Shown here: positions 55,745 to 62,923 of the stretch, piece after piece
Numbering within the stretch: the stretch's first letter is position 1
Layout: every line of letters begins with the position of its first letter
From: Clostridiales bacterium
GTDB lineage: Bacteria; Bacillota; Clostridia; Saccharofermentanales; Saccharofermentanaceae
Length of the DNA: 64,000 nucleotides
Direction of reading: 5' to 3'
Assembly: GCA_017510605.1 (NCBI GenBank)
Contig: JAFWMQ010000008.1
Span: 82,234 to 146,233, forward strand
Made by a program: the position numbers and the translations under genes
Notes under the pieces: model-generated
Told to the model about the DNA's origin: nothing
Seen by the model: only the letters and a program-made list of their open reading frames with translations
The model's database searches: none

Positions 55745-56929
55745 ATGCAGCAACGCAGAGGAATTTCTATCCTGGGATATGGATGCATGAGATTTACAAA
55801 GAGCGGCGGTTCCATCGACTTTGAGAAAGCCGATAAAGAATTCATGCGCGCTTTTGAGCTCGGTGTCAATTATTTTGATACCGCCTATATCTATCCCGGA
55901 AGCGAAGATGTAGTCGGACGTATTATCGAGAAGAACGGGATCAGGGACAAGATCAATCTTGCAACCAAACTGCCTCAATACCTCATTACAAACCGCGCGG
56001 GTCTAGATAAGTATTTCAACGAGGAACTGAAGCGCTTAAGAACAGATTATGTTGACTACTATCTGATGCATCACATGACGGATCTTGCACAATGGGAAAA
56101 GCTCAAAGCGGTCGGTATTATCGAGTGGATAGAGGAAAAAAAGAAGAGCGGCCAGATAAGGAATATCGGTTTCTCATTCCATGGTGATACCGATACATTT
56201 AAGAGCATTTTGTATGCATATGACTGGGATATGTGTCTCGTCCAGTACAATTATTTTGACGAGCATACCCAGGCCGGACGCGCAGGCATAAAGGCTGCAG
56301 CTGAAAAGGGATTGAAAGTGTTCATCATGGAGCCTTTAAGAGGCGGCAAATTAGTTGATCTTCTGCCCGAGAAAGCCAAGCGTGAGATCGCAAATGAACC
56401 TCACGGCAGGACTCCTGCCGAATGGGCATTCAGATGGCTTTGGGATCAGCCTGAGATCACATGCGTTCTTTCAGGAATGAACTCCATTGATATGATCGAG
56501 GAGAACTGCAGGATCGCATCAGAAGCTAAGGCCGGGGATTACGGTCCTGAAGAGAAAGCTTTTATCGAGAAGATAAAGTCATATATCATCGAGAGCACAA
56601 AGGTTAACTGCACCGGTTGCAGATACTGCATGCCGTGTCCCAAGGGTGTTGACATCCCTGCGATATTCTCGTGCTATAACCATATGTATTCAGAGAATAA
56701 GAGTTCGGGAAGACTCGAATATTTCCAGACGGTCGCATTGAGGATGACTCAAGCCGATGCTTCGCTGTGTGTTCAGTGCGGCAAGTGCGAAAAGCATTGT
56801 CCGCAGAGCATCCCGATCAGGGAAAAACTGAAAGAAGCGGATAAGCATCTCCGGCCATGGTGGCAGAAGATCTATCTGAAGGCTGCAAAGCGTGCCATGA
56901 TCGGAAAGAAAAAGAAATCAACGTCCTGA
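55745..56929 (+). CDS. Aldo/keto reductase with C-terminal 4Fe-4S ferredoxin domain
   Basis: LGYGCMR, NYFDTAYIY, DYYLMH, IGFSFH, MEPLRGG; CTGCRYCMPC and CVQCGKCEKHCP. Confidence 0.92.
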   Translation: MQQRRGISILGYGCMRFTKSGGSIDFEKADKEFMRAFELGVNYFDTAYIYPGSEDVVGRIIEKNGIRDKINLATKLPQYLITNRAGLDKYFNEELKRLRTDYVDYYLMHHMTDLAQWEKLKAVGIIEWIEEKKKSGQIRNIGFSFHGDTDTFKSILYAYDWDMCLVQYNYFDEHTQAGRAGIKAAAEKGLKVFIMEPLRGGKLVDLLPEKAKREIANEPHGRTPAEWAFRWLWDQPEITCVLSGMNSIDMIEENCRIASEAKAGDYGPEEKAFIEKIKSYIIESTKVNCTGCRYCMPCPKGVDIPAIFSCYNHMYSENKSSGRLEYFQTVALRMTQADASLCVQCGKCEKHCPQSIPIREKLKEADKHLRPWWQKIYLKAAKRAMIGKKKKSTS

Positions 56930-57036
56930 TGTATATCCGGGAAACGGAACTAAACATAATGAAACGTGACTTCTTTTAAAACTAACTGTTACTTCGATTG
57001 CTTTTGCCATCTTAAGATGTTAACGTATGCTTGATA

Positions 57037-57111
57037 GTTCTGAGTGCGGAAGGCATGTCCTGACGCGGAAGGCTTTAAGTAAATCTTTCTATACTTAAAT
57101 TGCTTCAGAAC
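57037..57111 (+). ncRNA. Candidate structured 5' leader RNA of the hydrogenase maturation operon
   Basis: Closing stem GTTCTGAG/TTCAGAAC, two GCGGAAGGC units, stem TTTAAGTA/TACTTAAA; begins at the predicted TSS of TTGCCA-16-TATGCT. Confidence 0.45.
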
Positions 57112-57142
57112 CTTGTTTGCCTATAGGGCGAAAGGAGGTCAA

Positions 57143-57400
57143 ATGGAGACGAGAGTTGCTATTATCGGCATTATTGTCGAGAATCCCGAATCAGTTTCGC
57201 AGATCAATGACATACTCCACGATGTGAGGGATTATGTCGTCGGAAGGATGGGTATTCCTTATCGTGAAAGGAATATCTCTATCATTAGTGTCGTTGTCGA
57301 TGCTCCCGAGAATCTGATAAGTTCGGTATCCGGCAAACTCGGCATGCTCGACGGCGTTTCTGCAAAGATAACGTATTCGAGACTTGCCAAGAATGACTGA
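57143..57400 (+). CDS. TM1266-family iron-only hydrogenase system regulator (ACT-like)
   Basis: RVAIIGIIVE...INDILHD...GRMGIPYRE...ISVVVDA...GKLG; first gene of the hydEGF operon. Confidence 0.88.
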   Translation: METRVAIIGIIVENPESVSQINDILHDVRDYVVGRMGIPYRERNISIISVVVDAPENLISSVSGKLGMLDGVSAKITYSRLAKND

Positions 57401-58472
57401 CATCCGTGACATAACAGAAAAGCTTTTTGCGGCTGAAAATCTCACTCGTGATGAGATCATCTGTCTTCTCGAAAACCAGACTACTGAACTGCAGTCTTAT
57501 CTTGCGGAAAAAGCTTCGGCAACAGCAAGAAAATACTACGGAAACAAGGTCTTTGTAAGAGGTCTCATCGAGTTCACCAACTACTGCAGGAACAACTGTT
57601 ATTACTGCGGTATCAGGTGCGGCAACAAAAACGCTTCCAGGTACAGGCTTACCAAAGAAGAGATCATTGAGTGTGCATCACACGGTTACGAGCTCGGATT
57701 CAGGACGATAGTTCTTCAGGGCGGTGAAGATGCGTATTTCACGGATAAGATGATGACGGATATCATCCGTTCGATCAAGAAAGATCATCCGGATGTTGCG
57801 GTCACGTTATCGATAGGCGAGAAGAGCTATGAATCCTACAAAGCTTTTTTCGATGCAGGCGCTGACAGATATCTTCTGAGGCATGAGACAGCTGATTTCG
57901 GTCATTATGCAAAACTCCATCCGTCTAATCTTTCTGCAGAGAACAGGCAGAATTGCCTGTACAACCTGAAGAAGATAGGTTTTCAGACAGGAGCAGGATT
58001 CATGGTGGGTTCGCCTTATCAGACGAATGAGAATATTGCAGATGATCTGTTGTTCCTGAAAAAACTTGATCCTGAGATGATCGGCATAGGACCGTTTATT
58101 CCTCATAAGGATACGGTGTTTGCAGAAGAGAAAGCAGGCGAACTGGATCAGGTCCTTTACCTGCTCAGCATAATAAGACTGATGCTTCCGACGGTTCTGC
58201 TTCCGGCTACGACGGCGCTCGGAACGATAGATCCCAGAGGAAGGGAGCTCGGTATCCTCGCAGGCGCAAACGTCGTAATGCCGAATCTGTCCCCCGTGGG
58301 TGTCAGAAAAAAATATGACCTGTACGACAACAAGATCTGCACAGGCGAAGAAGCGGCCGAATGCATGAATTGTCTAAAGAACAGGATAAGTAACATAGGC
58401 TACGGGATCGTCACCGACAGGGGCGATAACATCAGATTCATTAATAACAAAAATACTACGAAAGAAGGTTAA
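57393..58472 (+). CDS. hydE: [FeFe]-hydrogenase maturation radical SAM protein HydE
   Basis: RGLIEFTNYCRNNCYYCG, YLLRHETA, GPFIPH, PATTALG, GANVVMPN, YDNK. Confidence 0.95.
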   Translation: MTDIRDITEKLFAAENLTRDEIICLLENQTTELQSYLAEKASATARKYYGNKVFVRGLIEFTNYCRNNCYYCGIRCGNKNASRYRLTKEEIIECASHGYELGFRTIVLQGGEDAYFTDKMMTDIIRSIKKDHPDVAVTLSIGEKSYESYKAFFDAGADRYLLRHETADFGHYAKLHPSNLSAENRQNCLYNLKKIGFQTGAGFMVGSPYQTNENIADDLLFLKKLDPEMIGIGPFIPHKDTVFAEEKAGELDQVLYLLSIIRLMLPTVLLPATTALGTIDPRGRELGILAGANVVMPNLSPVGVRKKYDLYDNKICTGEEAAECMNCLKNRISNIGYGIVTDRGDNIRFINNKNTTKEG

Positions 58473-58476
58473 TTAT

Positions 58477-59892
58477 ATGTACGATCCTAAATCAATGAAA
58501 GCAGAAGAATTTATCGACGACAGCGAGATACTCGAATCTCTGAAATATGCCGATGAGAATAAGAATAATGTTGAATTAATCGATGAGATACTGGAGAAGG
58601 CCAGAGAGCGTAAAGGTCTTTCGCACCGCGACGCATCAGTACTGCTCGCTTGTGAGATCCCCGAGAAGAACGAAGAGATCTATGCTCTCGCAGAGCAGAT
58701 AAAGAAGGATTTCTATGGCAACAGGATAGTGCTTTTCGCGCCCCTGTATCTGTCAAATTACTGCATCAACGGATGTATCTACTGTCCTTATCACGGAAAG
58801 AACAAGACTATTCCGAGAGTTAAGCTTACACAGGAACAGATCAAGGCAGAGGTTATCGCTTTGCAGGACATGGGACACAAGAGACTTGCGATCGAAGCCG
58901 GCGAGGATCCTGTAAATAACCCTATCGAATATATCTTGGAGAGCATTAAGACGATATATTCCATCAAGCACAAGAACGGTGCGATCAGACGTGTAAACGT
59001 CAACATCGCTGCTACTACCGTAGAGAATTACCGTAAGCTTCACGAGGCAGGAATCGGAACATACATCCTTTTCCAGGAGACCTACCACAAAGAGTCTTAT
59101 GAGATCCTTCATCCGACAGGACCCAAGCATGATTATGCCTACCACACAGAAGCAATGGACAGAGCTATGGAAGGCGGAATCGATGACGTAGGTTTGGGCG
59201 TCCTCTTTGGTCTTGATAAATACCGCTACGAGTTTGCCGGGATCCTCATGCACGCAGAGCATCTGGAAGCGGTTCACGGTGTCGGTCCGCATACGATCTC
59301 CGTTCCGAGACTTTGCCCTGCAGATGATATCGATGTAAATGATTTCTCCAACGCGATCGACGACGATACATTTGCGAAAATCGTTGCATGCATAAGGATT
59401 GCTGTTCCTTACACCGGCATGATCGTTTCGACACGTGAATCACAGAAGTCCAGAGAACGAGTTCTCCACCTCGGCATCTCACAGATCTCGGGTGGTTCCA
59501 GAACATCTGTCGGCGGATACACACATGAGGAAAGAGTTGATGAGACAGCCCAGTTCGACGTATCCGATACGCGTTCTCTCGATGAAGTCATGAAGTGGCT
59601 GATCGACATGGATTACGTTCCGTCTTTCTGTACGGCATGCTACCGTGAAGGCAGGACCGGCGACAGGTTTATGGCACTCTGCAAGGCTAAGCAGATCCAG
59701 AACTGCTGCCTGCCGAATGCACTCATGACACTTAAGGAATACCTTGTCGATTATGCTTCCCCCGAGACGCGCGAAGTCGGCGAGAAACTTATCGAGAAGA
59801 ACATCCCTGACGTAACAAATGAGAAGGCACGTGCAGTTCTCCGCGACAGACTTGTTGCGATCGAGAACGGAGAGAGAGACTTCAGATTCTAA
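58477..59892 (+). CDS. hydG: [FeFe]-hydrogenase maturation radical SAM protein HydG
   Basis: FAPLYLSNYCINGCIYC, LFQETYH, HTISVPR, SFCTACYR...C, RDFRF. Confidence 0.96.
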   Translation: MYDPKSMKAEEFIDDSEILESLKYADENKNNVELIDEILEKARERKGLSHRDASVLLACEIPEKNEEIYALAEQIKKDFYGNRIVLFAPLYLSNYCINGCIYCPYHGKNKTIPRVKLTQEQIKAEVIALQDMGHKRLAIEAGEDPVNNPIEYILESIKTIYSIKHKNGAIRRVNVNIAATTVENYRKLHEAGIGTYILFQETYHKESYEILHPTGPKHDYAYHTEAMDRAMEGGIDDVGLGVLFGLDKYRYEFAGILMHAEHLEAVHGVGPHTISVPRLCPADDIDVNDFSNAIDDDTFAKIVACIRIAVPYTGMIVSTRESQKSRERVLHLGISQISGGSRTSVGGYTHEERVDETAQFDVSDTRSLDEVMKWLIDMDYVPSFCTACYREGRTGDRFMALCKAKQIQNCCLPNALMTLKEYLVDYASPETREVGEKLIEKNIPDVTNEKARAVLRDRLVAIENGERDFRF

Positions 59893-59923: not shown

Positions 59924-61063
59924 ATGGAAAGAACACACATTGCTTTTTTCGGGCGCCGTAATGCAGGCAAGTCGAGTCTGGTGAACAGATTTACTTCGCA
60001 GGAATTGTCCATCGTTTCTGATGTGGCCGGAACTACGACCGACCCCGTCAGGAAGACGATGGAACTGCTGCCGCTGGGTCCTGTTGTTATAATTGACACT
60101 CCGGGTATAGATGATGAAGGCGCGCTCGGTAATCAGAGGATCGAGCGGAGTTTAAGAGTTATCGATGAGACCGATATCGCGATCCTTGTTGTCGACGGAA
60201 GTATCGGTCCGGGAGAGGATGAGAAACAGCTGATCGATGTCTTTGTTAAGCGTAAGATTCCTTACCTGGTCGTTGTGAATAAGAGTGATCTCGGCAATGT
60301 TTCCGCGCCTGAAGATGCAATGACCGTAAGTGCTCTGGACGGCTCCGGAATCAATGAGCTAAAAGAGCGGGTTGCTGTTATCATCAAAGAACGCAAGGTC
60401 CGTCCGCTCGTGTCTGATCTTGTTGAAGAAGGCGATATTGTTGTTCTCGTTGTTCCTATAGATAAATCTGCACCAAAAGACAGACTGATCCTGCCGCAGC
60501 AGATGGTCATCCGTGATCTTCTCGGAAAGGGCGCGATCCCTGTAGTGGTAAAAGATACTGAACTTGATATCGCTCTTTCAAAAGTCGGTAAGGTCAGGAT
60601 GGTGATCACTGACAGCCAGGTTTTCGGGAAGGTATCAAAGATCGTTCCTTTGGATATTCCGCTGACGTCGTTCTCGATCCTTATGGCCAGATTCAAAGGC
60701 ATACTCGATCAGTCGATCGGGGGAGCGAATATGCTGGACAGTCTCGGGAACGGAGCTAAGATCCTCATCAGTGAGGGATGTACCCATCACCGTCAGTGCG
60801 AAGATATCGGAACGGTCAAACTTCCTAATTGGATCAGGGAATATACAGGAAAGGATTTCGAGTTCTCATTTACATCAGGACTTGAGTTCCCGAAGGATCT
60901 GTCTTCATTCGATCTCATAATCCACTGCGGCGCATGCATGCTCGGCGAGACTGAGGTAGCAAGCCGCTATAGAAAGGCCGCAGATCAGGGCATACCTATG
61001 ACCAACTACGGAATTGCGATCGGAAAGATGAAGGGAATCCTCGACAGGGTAATCAGCTTCTGA
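59924..61063 (+). CDS. hydF: [FeFe]-hydrogenase maturation GTPase HydF
   Basis: GRRNAGKSS, GTTTDPV, DTPG, NKSD, EGCTHH, IHCGACM. Confidence 0.95.
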   Translation: MERTHIAFFGRRNAGKSSLVNRFTSQELSIVSDVAGTTTDPVRKTMELLPLGPVVIIDTPGIDDEGALGNQRIERSLRVIDETDIAILVVDGSIGPGEDEKQLIDVFVKRKIPYLVVVNKSDLGNVSAPEDAMTVSALDGSGINELKERVAVIIKERKVRPLVSDLVEEGDIVVLVVPIDKSAPKDRLILPQQMVIRDLLGKGAIPVVVKDTELDIALSKVGKVRMVITDSQVFGKVSKIVPLDIPLTSFSILMARFKGILDQSIGGANMLDSLGNGAKILISEGCTHHRQCEDIGTVKLPNWIREYTGKDFEFSFTSGLEFPKDLSSFDLIIHCGACMLGETEVASRYRKAADQGIPMTNYGIAIGKMKGILDRVISF

Positions 61064-61108: not shown

Positions 61109-62200
61109 ATGATACTGCCTGATTACAAAAACTCGATCGCGAATCTGCCGAATTCGGTATTGAAATATTTCGGCGTGGAGACTGTGGGTGATACGTTGCC
61201 CATTTTCGATACGCTCCTCGAAAAAACCTACAAAAATGTTGTAGTCCTTCTTCTTGACGGTTTGGGAATAAGCACGATACATGAGCACCTCAAGGAAGAC
61301 GGCGCGTTCCTTACGCATCTTAAGGGTGAATACAGTTCAACATTTATCGCGACAACTGTAGCGGCAACGACATCTGCTCTTTCGGGGCTTCAGCCCTGCG
61401 AGCATTCATGGCTTGGATGGGATTGTTATTTTCCGCAGATCGATAAGACGGTTACGGTTTATCTTAATAGTGTCACCGGAACAAAAACACCTGCTGCCGA
61501 TTACAATGTTGCCTGGAAATACATACCGTATGAGAATGTTATCGAGAGACTGAATAAAGCCGGTCACAAAGCATATGCCGTGACTCCGTTTTTTCCTCCG
61601 AATCCGCAGACATTTGAAGAGATCATCGAACATATAAAAGATCATTGCAAAGAGCCTGAGCGGAAATACATCTATGCGTACTGGCCTTCTCCTGATGATT
61701 TTCTTCACCTCTACGGAGGGGGCTCGAAAGAGGTCTTCGATAATATGAAATACCTTGAAGATAAAGTGAGTGCTCTTGCAGATGAACTTGAAGACACGCT
61801 CCTTGTCGTCACGGCTGACCACGGTCACATAAACTCAGACAGCGCTATGATCAATGATTATCCGAAGATCACGGAGTGTCTTGAGAGAATTCCTTCATTC
61901 GAACCGCGTGCGCTAAATTTCTTTGTAAAAAAGGGAAAAGAAGAACAATTCAAAGACGAGTTCAACAAGGAATTCGGAGACAAATTTGTTCTGATGACAC
62001 GCGAAGAAGTCTTTGATAAAAAACTCTTTGGAACCGGCAAAGAACATCCCAGGTTCCGCAGCATGGTCGGTGATTATATTGCGATCGCCGTTAGCGACCT
62101 GTCGCTCTACTATACCGATGAAGAGACTTTGAAGTCGGTTCATGCAGGCATGACTGAAAATGAGATGAAAATACCGTTCATTGTTTTCGGGGAAAAATAA
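61109..62200 (+). CDS. Alkaline phosphatase superfamily (type I phosphodiesterase/nucleotide pyrophosphatase-like)
   Basis: VLLLDGLG, ATTVAATTS, PDDFLHLYG, VTADHGH, HAG. Confidence 0.88.
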   Translation: MILPDYKNSIANLPNSVLKYFGVETVGDTLPIFDTLLEKTYKNVVVLLLDGLGISTIHEHLKEDGAFLTHLKGEYSSTFIATTVAATTSALSGLQPCEHSWLGWDCYFPQIDKTVTVYLNSVTGTKTPAADYNVAWKYIPYENVIERLNKAGHKAYAVTPFFPPNPQTFEEIIEHIKDHCKEPERKYIYAYWPSPDDFLHLYGGGSKEVFDNMKYLEDKVSALADELEDTLLVVTADHGHINSDSAMINDYPKITECLERIPSFEPRALNFFVKKGKEEQFKDEFNKEFGDKFVLMTREEVFDKKLFGTGKEHPRFRSMVGDYIAIAVSDLSLYYTDEETLKSVHAGMTENEMKIPFIVFGEK

Positions 62201-62212
62201 TACCGGATATTC

Positions 62213-62923
62213 TCACCTGAGTTTTTTCGCGAGCCTGCCTGTAAGATCATATAATGCATATTCGATTATCAGGACCGCTGTGATTAATATGACAAGACCT
62301 GCTAAATAAAGACTCTTTCCCGTAAAGTTGTGAATCCATTCCAAAGGCGAATTCTGAGGCGGGTAGCTGAGGAACATATAGTTCTGGCCGGACCTGGTGT
62401 TAAGAAGATATATCGGAGGTACCACGATGAGAAGAAACAGGTACGGATACCAGAAATGCCTGAAAGATGCGTGTGCCTTGCCTTTGACAAGAAAGGCCAG
62501 AGGGATAAAGACCAGTAATGAATGAGTCAGGAAACACAGCAGAGGAAGATATGACCAGAAGGGTCTGTATGTCCAGTCTGGAAAGAGCAATGCAGCAACG
62601 GATCCCGGCATGATGAGAATAAGTGATATCTCAGTAAAGAATGATCGTGCTTTCCCGTGTGTGAATGATGCCGCGAGATTAACAAAAATACCGAGGTTGC
62701 ACAGGTGGAACGGCAGAAAGCCCATAATATCGCCGCCTTCACGTACGAGCAGGATATCCTGAACTGTCTCACCGATCAGGGTTATGAACGACAGGATAAG
62801 CACGGTGAGATCAGCAGTTTTGTCTGAGCTCCTTCGTAAGATCAGAAGCCCTATGGTTATCGCAACAGTTATTGTAATGAGCATACCGATGTGCTCAGGA
62901 CAGAAATGCTCGAAAAAATTCAT
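62213..62923 (-). CDS. YwaF/TMEM164-like integral membrane protein
   Basis: LPFHLCNL, ALLFPDW, THSLL, NYMFL; multiple TM helices. Confidence 0.8.
   Translation of the reverse strand: MNFFEHFCPEHIGMLITITVAITIGLLILRRSSDKTADLTVLILSFITLIGETVQDILLVREGGDIMGFLPFHLCNLGIFVNLAASFTHGKARSFFTEISLILIMPGSVAALLFPDWTYRPFWSYLPLLCFLTHSLLVFIPLAFLVKGKAHASFRHFWYPYLFLLIVVPPIYLLNTRSGQNYMFLSYPPQNSPLEWIHNFTGKSLYLAGLVILITAVLIIEYALYDLTGRLAKKLR

Follow-up and report, generated by a model that had tools for sequence, protein, structure and literature searches.

The ON-type adenine riboswitches are built on a three-way junction and act either on transcription (pbuE/ydhL) or on translation (add). The 3' strand of their P1 helix is common to the terminator or the ribosome-binding-site sequestor, one aptamer serving either platform. 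In Bacillus subtilis, PyrR, TRAP and HutP are small oligomeric ligand-sensing proteins, often encoded in the operon itself, that bind the leader and choose between a terminator and an antiterminator. The hammerhead ribozyme is another structured RNA with points of resemblance to the one described here, and its core is made of CUGA-N-GA, stem II and GAA. To our knowledge, the control of the timing of [FeFe]-hydrogenase cofactor assembly is largely unknown.

Here we describe the leader of a TM1266-hydE-hydG-hydF operon located in a stretch of 64,000 nucleotides (the window) from a Clostridiales genome. Positions 57036-57145 are very probably a real conserved regulatory leader belonging to a wider motif, and the best overall explanation, which on balance we consider probable, is that of a cis-regulatory switch for the operon. 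Like the adenine riboswitches, this leader would combine a three-way junction with a shared P1 3' strand, and its motif uses either expression platform depending on the organism. Unlike them, it shows no sequence or Rfam similarity to these riboswitches, it carries a conserved CUGA, a tandem GA/GA in P2 and an RAAGGC sequence, and about half of the family lacks a clear P1. As in the PyrR, TRAP and HutP systems, a small protein, TM1266, is encoded first in most operons with the motif, but its fold is ACT/NikR-C-like (2NZC), the motif persists after loss of the adjacent TM1266 gene and this protein is not known to bind RNA. The elements of the locus are the following:

57004..57031, + strand: putative sigma-70-type promoter, TTGCCA (57004-09), 16-nt spacer, TATGCT (57026-31); 9/12 consensus matches
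57036..57076, + strand: conserved core, made of AGUUCUGA, hairpin P2 and GAAGGC; consensus of 39 distinct sequences
57037..57043, + strand: P1 5' strand GUUCUGA, with the conserved CUGA; pairs with 57105-57111
57045..57067, + strand: hairpin P2, UGCG-GA-AGG, 5-nt loop, CCU-GA-CGCG, with a symmetric tandem GA/GA internal loop
57068..57073, + strand: RAAGGC tail (GAAGGC), the proposed switch sequence; invariant portion of the second GCGGAAGGC copy
57074..57099, + strand: hairpin P3, UUUAAGUA, 10-nt loop, UACUUAAA; extendable by GGC 57071-73 with GCU 57102-04
57103..57114, + strand: CUUCAGAACCUU, P1 3' strand or, alternatively, 5' strand of the ribosome-binding-site sequestor
57116..57132, + strand: hairpin P4, directly 5' of the Shine-Dalgarno sequence and bracketed by a CCUU/GGAG helix
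57134..57145, + strand: Shine-Dalgarno GGAGG (57134-38) and start ATG (57143-45) of the TM1266-family gene
57143..57400, + strand: TM1266-family gene, 85 aa, first in the operon (TIGR03959, 111.6 bits)
57393..58472, + strand: hydE (HydE, 582 bits); its ATG at 57393 overlaps the TM1266 stop as ATGACTGA
58477..59892, + strand: hydG (HydG, 929 bits)
59924..61063, + strand: hydF (HydF, 521 bits)

The promoter hexamers, outer stem, twin 9-mers, 8-bp stem, Shine-Dalgarno sequence and ATG all lie where an earlier sequence-only reading of this DNA had placed them. The outer stem joins GTTCTGAG (57037-44) to TTCAGAAC (57104-11) by seven Watson-Crick pairs and one G.U, the two GCGGAAGGC copies occupy 57046-54 and 57065-73, and the arms of P3 are TTTAAGTA (57074-81) and TACTTAAA (57092-99). 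Judging from the putative promoter, transcription would start at about 57036-57038, and interspecies conservation sets in at about 57035. The promoter call is weak on its own because our scan returned three promoter-like sites per 1.1 kb against 1.6 expected. Additionally, the leader is covered by RNA-library contigs assembled from public RNA data (X1, 56865-57189; X4, 56803-57157; X2, 57050-57200). X1 shows no differences to the window and reaches upstream of the predicted promoter, which could be due to read-through from the upstream gene or to DNA carry-over. A Rex-type operator in the promoter was also considered and discarded, as by eye only a half-site is present in the window and it is not conserved in relatives.

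The core (57036-57076) ends 66 nt before the ATG of the TM1266-family gene (TIGR03959), and all of its positions fit the consensus of the 39 distinct sequences. It is the sole match in the genome of our core model, R3 (49.6 bits, E 1.8e-7), a score that is partly so by construction because A7 and A9, the source alignments of R2 and R3, contain the sequence of the window itself, entered either as the window or as its locus, L125, and an E-value that, like all those from covariance models given here, is rough owing to a shortened calibration. The core is independently defined by relatives outside the genus. The sequence-only reading had described a structured 5' leader matching none of the SAM-I, TPP, FMN or cobalamin riboswitches, and this is borne out, with no Rfam family matching. 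The Rfam search that it had proposed returned no match to any family, SAM-III and glnA included, at gathering thresholds in the whole window (Rfam 15). With E values up to 10 on 56880-57250, the only hit was the L31-Firmicutes leader, at 13.9 bits against a cut-off of 33.3 and on the Shine-Dalgarno region, and on 15 distant instances (E up to 1) no family was found at the motif. Searches of the openly accessible full-text literature found no mention of RNA elements preceding hyd maturation genes, and the motif is apparently undescribed. The hammerhead ribozyme was examined as a candidate, given that the leader shares with it a CUGA, a stem flanked by GA...GA, a GAA-rich strand and a three-way junction. 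It was rejected: the spacing of the catalytic core differs because a lower stem of 3-4 bp stands between the GA/GA pair and the CUGA and RAAGGC sequences, and no Rfam hammerhead matched even at the permissive thresholds (E up to 10; E up to 1).

Conservation upstream of orthologous operons, on which the earlier proposal had been staked, was found in 25 of the 99 other genomes of the genus and at further TM1266 loci. The full-length model R1 matched these 25 genomes and the window's own once each (113-143 bits), and no match was found in 43 genomes from seven other genera of the family. Among 18 loci with an intact TM1266, mean pairwise identity is 84% in the leader (~57036-57145), 65% at the gene's third codon positions and 38% in the DNA upstream of the promoter; upstream of the leader the DNA is not alignable across the genus genomes. 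Pattern matches in metagenomes were the same leader in all cases (18/18), and in a wide pattern scan 16 of the 80 stretches examined were the leader, the other 64 being chance matches, mostly in high-GC genomes. The 64-kb window contains the GCGGAAGGC 9-mer three times in exact form, twice within the leader, and allowing one mismatch the 9-mer is not significantly enriched in the window (13 copies against 8.6 expected); two copies within 30 nt are unique in the 2.9-Mb genome. As a separate observation, a weak P2-like hairpin (E 0.3-0.6) precedes hydG at L164, L166 and L170.

Beyond the genus, the core, YGUNCUGA - P2 - RAAGGC, whose hairpin has an RA/GA internal loop, recurs widely, and the version in the window is that of one lineage within a motif spread across many Clostridia, some Negativicutes, Peptococcia and other anaerobes. 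R1 itself finds L217 (31 bits, E 2e-6), in which P1, P2 and P3 covary and P1 carries a compensatory change (GUACUGA/UCAGUAU), and also L232 and L240. A pattern combined with a pairing check detected the motif on the forward strand of 15 of 80 TM1266 loci. R3 detected it 5' of the gene and in sense orientation at 24 of 80 diverse TM1266 loci, with one antisense match and five further loci found by pattern alone. In an unbiased sample of the class, 17 of 151 genomes had a single R3 match each, and about 146 genomes of other classes, used as specificity control, gave no new matches. The exact canonical core is present in the genomes of at least 120 species.

P2 covaries strongly across lineages, and six of its seven pairs change on both sides among 40 distinct sequences. 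Its cells are paired in 92.4% of cases, compared to 67.9% in shuffles and 29-55% with the partner slid, although these pair counts lean towards the structure because the sequences behind R2, R3 and alignment A10 were picked by pattern or model and the alignment was fitted to the structure. The flanks of P2 and its UUCGU loop are conserved in sequence, beyond what pairing demands. In the RAAGGC tail the A, A and G are invariant in all 39 distinct sequences, the next G is kept in 38 and the C in 37. P3, in contrast to this shared core, is lineage-specific, and relatives carry other P3 sequences.

These data also change how the repeated 9-mers are to be seen. The twin GCGGAAGGC motifs highlighted by the sequence-only reading are not equivalent units: the first is the 5' arm of P2, and the second consists of the end of the 3' arm plus the RAAGGC tail. 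Within the genus only AAGGC is invariant in the second copy (GCGT.., GAGG.. and GCAG.. variants occur), and in distant relatives the two halves are wholly different, for example UUCCAAAGG vs GGAGAAAGGC. If the boxes were instead a DNA operator, with the direct repeats recognised by a transcription factor shortly past the promoter, their conservation would reflect recognition at the DNA level and not RNA structure, their position as exact 9-mers 14-42 nt downstream of the -10 box would be a common one, and the high conservation of both copies in the genus would be expected. We nevertheless consider this extremely improbable. From species to species the spacing between boxes varies by 3 nt, owing to a P2 loop of 4-7 nt; a C>U change in box 1 of L136 is matched by a G>A in the complementary arm and not in box 2; box 2 is variable at its first four positions; and the boxes of distant relatives are unlike each other while the hairpin arms covary. 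Furthermore, the motif is bound to the sense strand, with 0/80 reverse-strand detections by pattern and 1/25 antisense by R3.

Folding of the window sequence alone gave -30.8 kcal/mol (z = -1.67), which is not significant, with 12 of 200 shuffles equally stable, so the leader stands above chance because of its conservation and not because of its single-sequence fold. P1 is 100% paired in 29 distinct sequences of the clade, where a C>U in one sequence and a partner A>G in two keep wobble pairs both times. RNAalifold proposed a sequestor in which CUUCA pairs with UGGAG (57144-48) and ACCUU with GAGGU (57135-39), and all of these pairs hold in the 29 distinct sequences as well, without covariation. 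Inside the clade no compensatory change was found in P1, P3 or the sequestor helix, only wobble-compatible transitions, and the clade data fit the two alternative pairings equally well. P2 shows one CG>UA change there (L136) and a loop of 4-7 nt, and the P3 stem shows only U-A to U.G changes, with a loop variable in sequence and length. The best covariation inside the clade is that of P4, where compensatory changes are seen: pair 99:109 appears as five pair types (CG, UA, GC, GU, UG) and pair 97:111 as GC, GU and AU. Sequence and length variation is restricted to the three predicted hairpin loops. Pseudoknot pairing of the P2 loop (UUC/UUU) with the tail (GAA/AAA) was considered by eye and dropped, since only about half of the sequences are consistent with it.

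In the computed folds of the window sequence, the P1 conformer (-36.7 kcal/mol) and the full sequestor conformer (-35.2 kcal/mol) both leave the Shine-Dalgarno sequence largely paired, which counts against a clear on/off effect. According to the computation, four of the five GGAGG bases are unpaired with a probability of 0.02-0.12, compared to 0.94 for the first G; for the AUG the values are 0.04-0.19. The sequence-only reading had pointed to GGA in loops as possible CsrA sites. In such a leader a CsrA dimer would hold the GGA motifs of the two boxes and of the Shine-Dalgarno sequence and block translation, and the three GGA triplets, which fall within 90 nt and include the one of the Shine-Dalgarno sequence, look suited to this. 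The first, however, is part of the P2 stem and its internal loop and is replaced by CAA, GAA or UGA in relatives, the second lies at the foot of P2, and no GGA is found in a hairpin loop. PF02599 (CsrA) was not matched in the genome of the window, whose completeness score is 100%, while the same search was positive in E. coli, B. subtilis and T. maritima. Canonical CsrA is thereby excluded, and the chance that a CsrA-type mechanism operates here is negligible.

Regarding the expression platform, an intrinsic terminator follows the core in most lineages. No terminator-like site was found in 56500-57600, and the clade of the window has a helix covering the Shine-Dalgarno sequence and AUG instead. 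The window leader is a platform variant and not the typical form of the motif because it has no RAAGGC-complementary terminator. In relatives, GCCUU, the complement of the RAAGGC tail, occurs in the downstream terminator. Scored as the complement of AAGGN, it lies downstream in 20 of 46 instances, compared to 10 matches in 92 control windows, and adjacent partners for both P2 flanks occur in 22 of 46 instances versus 13 of the 92 controls. A 6-nt partner of the CUGA flank is barely enriched (25/46 instances, 29 matches in the 92 control windows), and about half of the instances have no clear junction partners. At L282 the default would be termination because the terminator (-29.8 kcal/mol) folds more stably than the junction (-25.1 kcal/mol).

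Two observations would suit a leader that is conserved but constitutive, its structure serving mRNA stability or processing without responding to a signal: pairing of the Shine-Dalgarno sequence is predicted for either conformer, and one genome of the genus (G113, L157) keeps the same gene order with the leader deleted. We hold this to be very improbable. The same core is combined with two expression platforms, terminators elsewhere and a ribosome-binding-site helix here, and complements of the core flanks are present in the terminators. In addition, some MAGs contain two copies of the motif, one before hydE and one before a transporter binding-protein gene, an arrangement that looks like a regulon.

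In the cis-regulatory switch that we favour, the sensor would be a three-way junction in which P1 (GUUCUGA/UCAGAAC) encloses P2, the GAAGGC tail and P3. We infer that both P2 flanks find their pairing partners further downstream and so form this junction, which in other lineages would compete with a terminator and in the window with a CUUCA-GA-ACCUU / GAGGU-CAAA-UGGAG helix covering the Shine-Dalgarno sequence and the AUG. The folded junction would correspond to the on state, because it competes with the terminator or the sequestor helix; in the unfolded state translation of the first ORF would be blocked, and that of hydE too by coupling. Control at translation initiation is fairly likely for the window's leader. 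The effector would stabilise the junction and would most likely be a small metabolite connected with H-cluster assembly, in which case the leader would be an ON-type riboswitch; we put the case for a metabolite a little short of even, with a protein as the less probable choice.

The identity of the genes behind the motif bears directly on this choice. The motif lies directly upstream of TM1266, hydE, hydG, hydF or an NMT1/SsuA-type ABC transporter. Among 80 of the at least 120 genomes with the canonical core, the next gene is a TM1266-like ORF in 63, hydE in 8, hydG in 1 and an NMT1/phosphonate-type binding protein in 4, and TM1266 also follows directly in 12 of the 15 unbiased matches outside the genus. 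This near-constant neighbour, together with the sequence-conserved flanks and loop of P2, also fits a protein effector. According to this alternative, the TM1266-family protein, small, ACT-like and possibly loaded with a metabolite or metal, binds P2 and its CUGA/RAAGGC flanks and acts by attenuation or antitermination, a proposal that we find rather unlikely, as we do its corollary that bound TM1266 frees or locks the terminator or sequestor in a feedback control like that of PyrR, TRAP and HutP. The genes after TM1266 differ (hydE, hydG or an ABC-transporter binding protein), and in the genomes where the motif precedes another gene, PF21699 genes are found elsewhere (3/3). Both NCBIfam and Pfam list the family as a putative regulator. 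The homolog of known structure, 2NZC (E 3.6e-12), has the ACT/NikR-C-like fold and was deposited as a hypothetical protein, and RNA-binding activity of the family was not found in the openly accessible full-text literature. Against the protein, the motif also stands without an intervening TM1266 before hydE (8 loci), hydG (1), hydF (1) or the transporter (2 operons, plus 4 genes for the binding protein).

Eight further members of the genus likewise speak against the adjacent TM1266 copy being needed. In these, TM1266 is reduced to an ORF of 16-30 codons and hydG is also lost, while the leader is kept under constraint: compared to the window, the leader is 79-92% identical and the first 75 nt of the remnant 62-71%. 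The stop of the remnant overlaps the hydE ATG in the seven readable loci (7/7), the eighth locus being cut short, which shows that the leader is retained where TM1266 has shrunk to a short ORF translationally coupled to hydE. The only TIGR03959 match of these eight genomes is a paralog in a separate AIRS_C / TM1266 / nitrogenase-like operon, which is present too in genomes with the hyd-linked copy.

Taking the metabolite-responsive switch as our working model, we tentatively propose that the core of about 41 nt (CUGA, GA/GA hairpin, RAAGGC), set at a three-way junction, defines a new riboswitch class binding a small metabolite linked to the assembly of the H-cluster. In the same tentative reading, it would switch on both the maturases and an ABC transporter of the NMT1/SsuA type in Clostridia and related anaerobes, and the genus of the window would hold its translational version.

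An RNA switch located before TM1266, hydE, hydG, hydF and one ABC transporter in at least 120 species would give a handle on the signal involved, on the role of TM1266, a putative regulator whose structure is solved but to which no function has been assigned, and on the cargo of the transporter. If the riboswitch reading is true, the identity of the ligand would point to the role of TM1266 and to the transporter substrate. In this regard, the genus of the window offers the translational version of the switch, easier to study in reporter fusions, and its natural deletions (genomes that retain the leader without TM1266 and hydG, and one that has lost the leader) already separate some of the hypotheses. 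Lastly, members of this genus are hydrogen producers of the rumen and gut, so the control of hydrogenase maturation in them bears on hydrogen and methane flux.

The leader (about 57036-57145) stands 5' of a TM1266-hydE-hydG-hydF operon, and the element positions claimed by the sequence-only reading (rows marked "from sequence") were all borne out by reading the window sequence:

55745-56929: upstream gene, aldo/keto reductase with a 4Fe-4S domain
57004-57009 and 57026-57031, + strand: promoter hexamers TTGCCA and TATGCT, from sequence
57037-57044, + strand: 5'-end strand GTTCTGAG, from sequence
57104-57111, + strand: partner strand TTCAGAAC, from sequence
57046-57054 and 57065-57073, + strand: two copies of the 9-mer GCGGAAGGC, from sequence
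57074-57081 / 57092-57099, + strand: 8-bp stem, from sequence
57134-57138 and 57143, + strand: GGAGG and ATG, from sequence
behind the leader, + strand: TM1266-family gene (TIGR03959, 111.6 bits)
after the TM1266 gene, + strand: hydE, hydG and hydF

The hydE ATG at 57393 overlaps the stop of the TM1266 gene. On the 3' side of hydF, a 363-aa ORF (61109-62200, + strand) had no NCBIfam match, and a TP0381/TMEM164-related membrane acyltransferase is encoded on the opposite strand (62213-62923). Taken alone, the window features are weak. The putative promoter has 9/12 consensus matches, with shuffles of the region giving 1.6 such sites, the single-sequence fold of the leader has z = -1.67, and the 9-mer GCGGAAGGC is not enriched within the 64-kb window, its pair being found once in the window's genome. 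Rfam 15 gave no match to the leader in the window or to the motif, in agreement with the earlier view that it does not fit the SAM-I, TPP, FMN or cobalamin consensus. In addition, the window has no terminator at the leader, and RNA-library contigs span the leader and also DNA upstream of the predicted promoter.

BLAST against 40 relatives recovered the leader from six genus members, with homology starting near the -35 box; the alignment collapses upstream of about 57035 and the leader itself is nearly invariant. With a covariance model spanning the full leader (R1), built from 17 distinct leader sequences, the window's genome and 25 of the 99 further genus members each gave a single match of 113-143 bits, and 43 genomes from seven other genera of the family gave none; TIGR03959 is present in 101 of the same 143 genomes. 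One more R1 match, at 16.9 bits, was dismissed as junk. Matching public contigs are labelled as Saccharofermentans, Ruminococcaceae, Oscillospiraceae and Clostridiales rumen and gut MAGs; 16 of the 80 stretches fetched in a pattern scan of public contigs corresponded to the leader, the other 64 matching by chance, and all 18 stretches from a metagenome scan were the leader. Among 18 loci with an intact TM1266 gene, mean pairwise identity rose from 38% upstream through 58% across the promoter to 84% in both leader and gene, third codon positions standing at 65%. The higher identity of the leader compared with third codon positions and upstream DNA indicates that it is under purifying selection.

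Within the clade of leader-bearing members of the genus (29 distinct sequences), sequence and length changes are confined to three apical loops. Helix P4 (57116-57132) shows clear compensatory changes, one of its pairs occurring as five types and another as GC, GU and AU, P2 (57045-57067) shows a single CG>UA change, and P1 (57037-43 / 57105-11) and P3 (57074-99) show only wobble-keeping transitions. An alternative pairing from RNAalifold (5' end with AAGGC, CUUCA with the start-codon UGGAG, and ACCUU with the Shine-Dalgarno) accounts for the same clade data equally well, and the two conformers are nearly isoenergetic (-36.7 vs -35.2 kcal/mol). Judged from these alignments, covariation inside the clade supports only P2 and P4, the remainder being too conserved for testing. 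The proposal that the twin GCGGAAGGC copies are equivalent units did not hold, since they differ in their P2 roles and in conservation: copy 1 forms the 5' side of hairpin P2, and copy 2 consists of the final three bases of the P2 3' arm plus the GAAGGC tail, with its first four bases varying (GCGT, GAGG, GCAG) and AAGGC never varying.

The core of the leader (YGUNCUGA, hairpin P2 with an RA/GA internal loop, RAAGGC) extends well beyond the genus. When 80 diverse TM1266 loci were fetched and searched with R1, significant matches appeared far outside it at L217 (31 bits), L232 and L240, where P1 (GUACUGA/UCAGUAU), both P2 parts and P3 are altered in sequence yet paired. A pairing-checked pattern (CUGA, N0-3, 3 bp, RA, 3 bp, loop, 3 bp, G[AC], 3 bp, N0-2, RAAGG) was found on the sense strand of 15/80 loci, 95-260 nt before the gene, and on the other strand of 0/80. 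For 15 instances compared with Rfam, no family matched. Models of the core alone (R2 and R3), with the window's sequence among their alignment rows, matched 24/80 TM1266 loci upstream on the sense strand, with five further loci found by the pattern only; one antisense match was taken as false. The motif is therefore conserved upstream of orthologous operons, both in the 25 of 99 further genus members and at distant TM1266 loci; a lack of such conservation would have refuted the sequence-only reading. In the alignment of 40 distinct sequences, where fitting to the model inflates the values somewhat, 6/7 P2 pairs change on both sides and 92.4% of P2 cells are paired, vs 67.9% in shuffles and 29-55% with a slid partner. 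Full or near invariance is seen at G2, C5, U6 and A8, throughout AAGGC, and at position two of both internal-loop dinucleotides. Separately, the TM1266-hydG gap of L164, L166 and L170 (about 1770-1885) holds a weak P2-like hairpin (AGAG-AA-AGAA, loop, UUCU-GA-CUCU; R1 E 0.3-0.6), followed by GAAG just before the hydG ribosome-binding site, which may be chance.

In unbiased searches, R3 matched 17 of 151 genomes sampled from the class, one match each. It gave no new match in a phylum-level sample of about 146 genomes from other classes, which also shows the model to be specific. Twelve of the 15 matches outside the genus precede a TM1266-like gene, followed by hydE, hydG or an SsuA/NMT1-type binding protein; one of the other three lies before hydF-hydE and two before a complete SsuC/SaoA/SsuA-like ABC transporter, and all three of these genomes have TM1266-family genes elsewhere. 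At least 120 species genomes contain the exact canonical core, among them Sporomusa ovata, Clostridium frigoris, Ruminiclostridium sufflavum, Caproiciproducens and Mobilitalea. For 80 canonical-pattern loci fetched from these, the next gene was a TM1266-like ORF in 63 (median distance 99 nt), hydE in 8, hydG in 1, a lipoprotein in 4 (three scanned match Phosphonate-bd/NMT1, the fourth being assigned by likeness to those three) and unclear in 4. Two Oscillospiraceae MAGs carry two copies (L308+L353, L320+L348), before hydE and before a binding-protein gene, and such copies before different genes point to a small regulon. Mobilitalea sibirica has two motif copies on two contigs (L322, L226). The core also precedes an SsuABC/NMT1/phosphonate-binding-type ABC transporter, alone or behind a TM1266 gene (L294/L295/L298 in G216 and G296; L285 and L289 in G026 and G196; L308, L310, L348, L366). 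In a full-text literature search, no publication described an RNA element ahead of hydrogenase-maturation genes, and we rate the leader as riboswitch-like or attenuator-like in kind.

In most lineages the core is followed by an intrinsic terminator that is itself sequence-conserved (AUCCUUGUGCCUU..GGUACAAGGAU plus a U run), 20-150 nt downstream (L282, L245, L234, L284, L255, L247, L237, L252 and others). The 5' arm of the terminator is complementary to RAAGGC and the following bases, and GUACUGA has its complement in the loop and 3' arm. Such conservation across distant taxa is unusual for a terminator and fits a second pairing partner for both arms. An exact AAGGN complement lies downstream in 20/46 instances vs 10 matches in 92 control windows, and adjacent partners for both flanks in 22/46 vs 13/92; a strict 6-nt test of the CUGA flank was barely above control (25/46 vs 29 matches in 92 windows). 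At L282, the terminator fold reaches -29.8 kcal/mol and the three-way junction with P1 and P3 enforced -25.1 kcal/mol. Together, the shared complementarity and these energies suggest that junction and terminator would be mutually exclusive, with the terminator winning by default. In the window, the P1 3' strand doubles as the 5' strand of a helix over the Shine-Dalgarno and AUG, which replaces the terminator. Both designs agree in that a folded junction would turn the genes on, presumably through an effector that stabilises it. Should a factor instead recognise the hairpin in a state where the flanks are unpaired, the element would be an off-switch and the sign of regulation would be reversed.

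In 8 of 26 leader-bearing genomes (L130, L134, L140-L142, L145-L147; G021, G059, G066, G067, G070, G074, G114, G115), the leader is followed by a 16-30-codon ORF still starting MET, MEI or MEK and then directly by hydE and hydF, without hydG. The short-ORF stop overlaps the hydE ATG (TAATG, ATGA or similar) in the 7 readable loci, the eighth being incomplete; compared with the window, the leader of 7 loci is 79-92% identical and the first 75 nt of the TM1266 remnant 62-71%. HydG is missing in 5/5 of these genomes checked (completeness 79-99%), and their sole TIGR03959 match is a paralog in a separate operon of AIRS_C (HypE-like), TM1266 (82 aa) and two nitrogenase-component-1-like proteins (432 and 354 aa). 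This operon lacks the leader motif at L179-L182 (G005:C3, G114:C4, G021:C5, G070:C28) and also occurs in a genome with an intact hyd operon. From the retention of the leader over a TM1266 remnant it follows that it would be maintained for an effect on the initiation codon of the first ORF and, through translational coupling, on hydE, and that the adjacent TM1266 gene is dispensable for it. The joint loss of TM1266 and hydG from the operon hints that TM1266 works with HydG; hydE and hydF are kept intact without hydG. A natural deletion of the leader itself occurs in G113 (L157), where gene order is unchanged (aldo/keto reductase, TM1266), the -10 box through P4 is deleted, and only a -35-like sequence and the Shine-Dalgarno region are left upstream of the TM1266 ATG.

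As to the effector, we tentatively place a metabolite first, at a little under an even chance. A single aptamer-like core with two kinds of expression platform, a transporter within the regulon, motifs preceding hydE, hydG, hydF or a transporter with no intervening TM1266 gene, and persistence of the motif after loss of the linked TM1266 all favour it. A TM1266-family protein is a less likely effector, favoured by its being a near-constant neighbour of the motif, its presence in every motif-bearing genome checked (three informative cases only) and the sequence conservation of flanks and loop. TM1266 has a homolog in 2NZC, whose deposition names it a hypothetical protein, and we found nothing in the published literature on its function. 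Another factor, or none, takes the remaining probability. The window adds a translational variant and natural deletions to this element, and the substrate of the transporter may be a clue to the signal.
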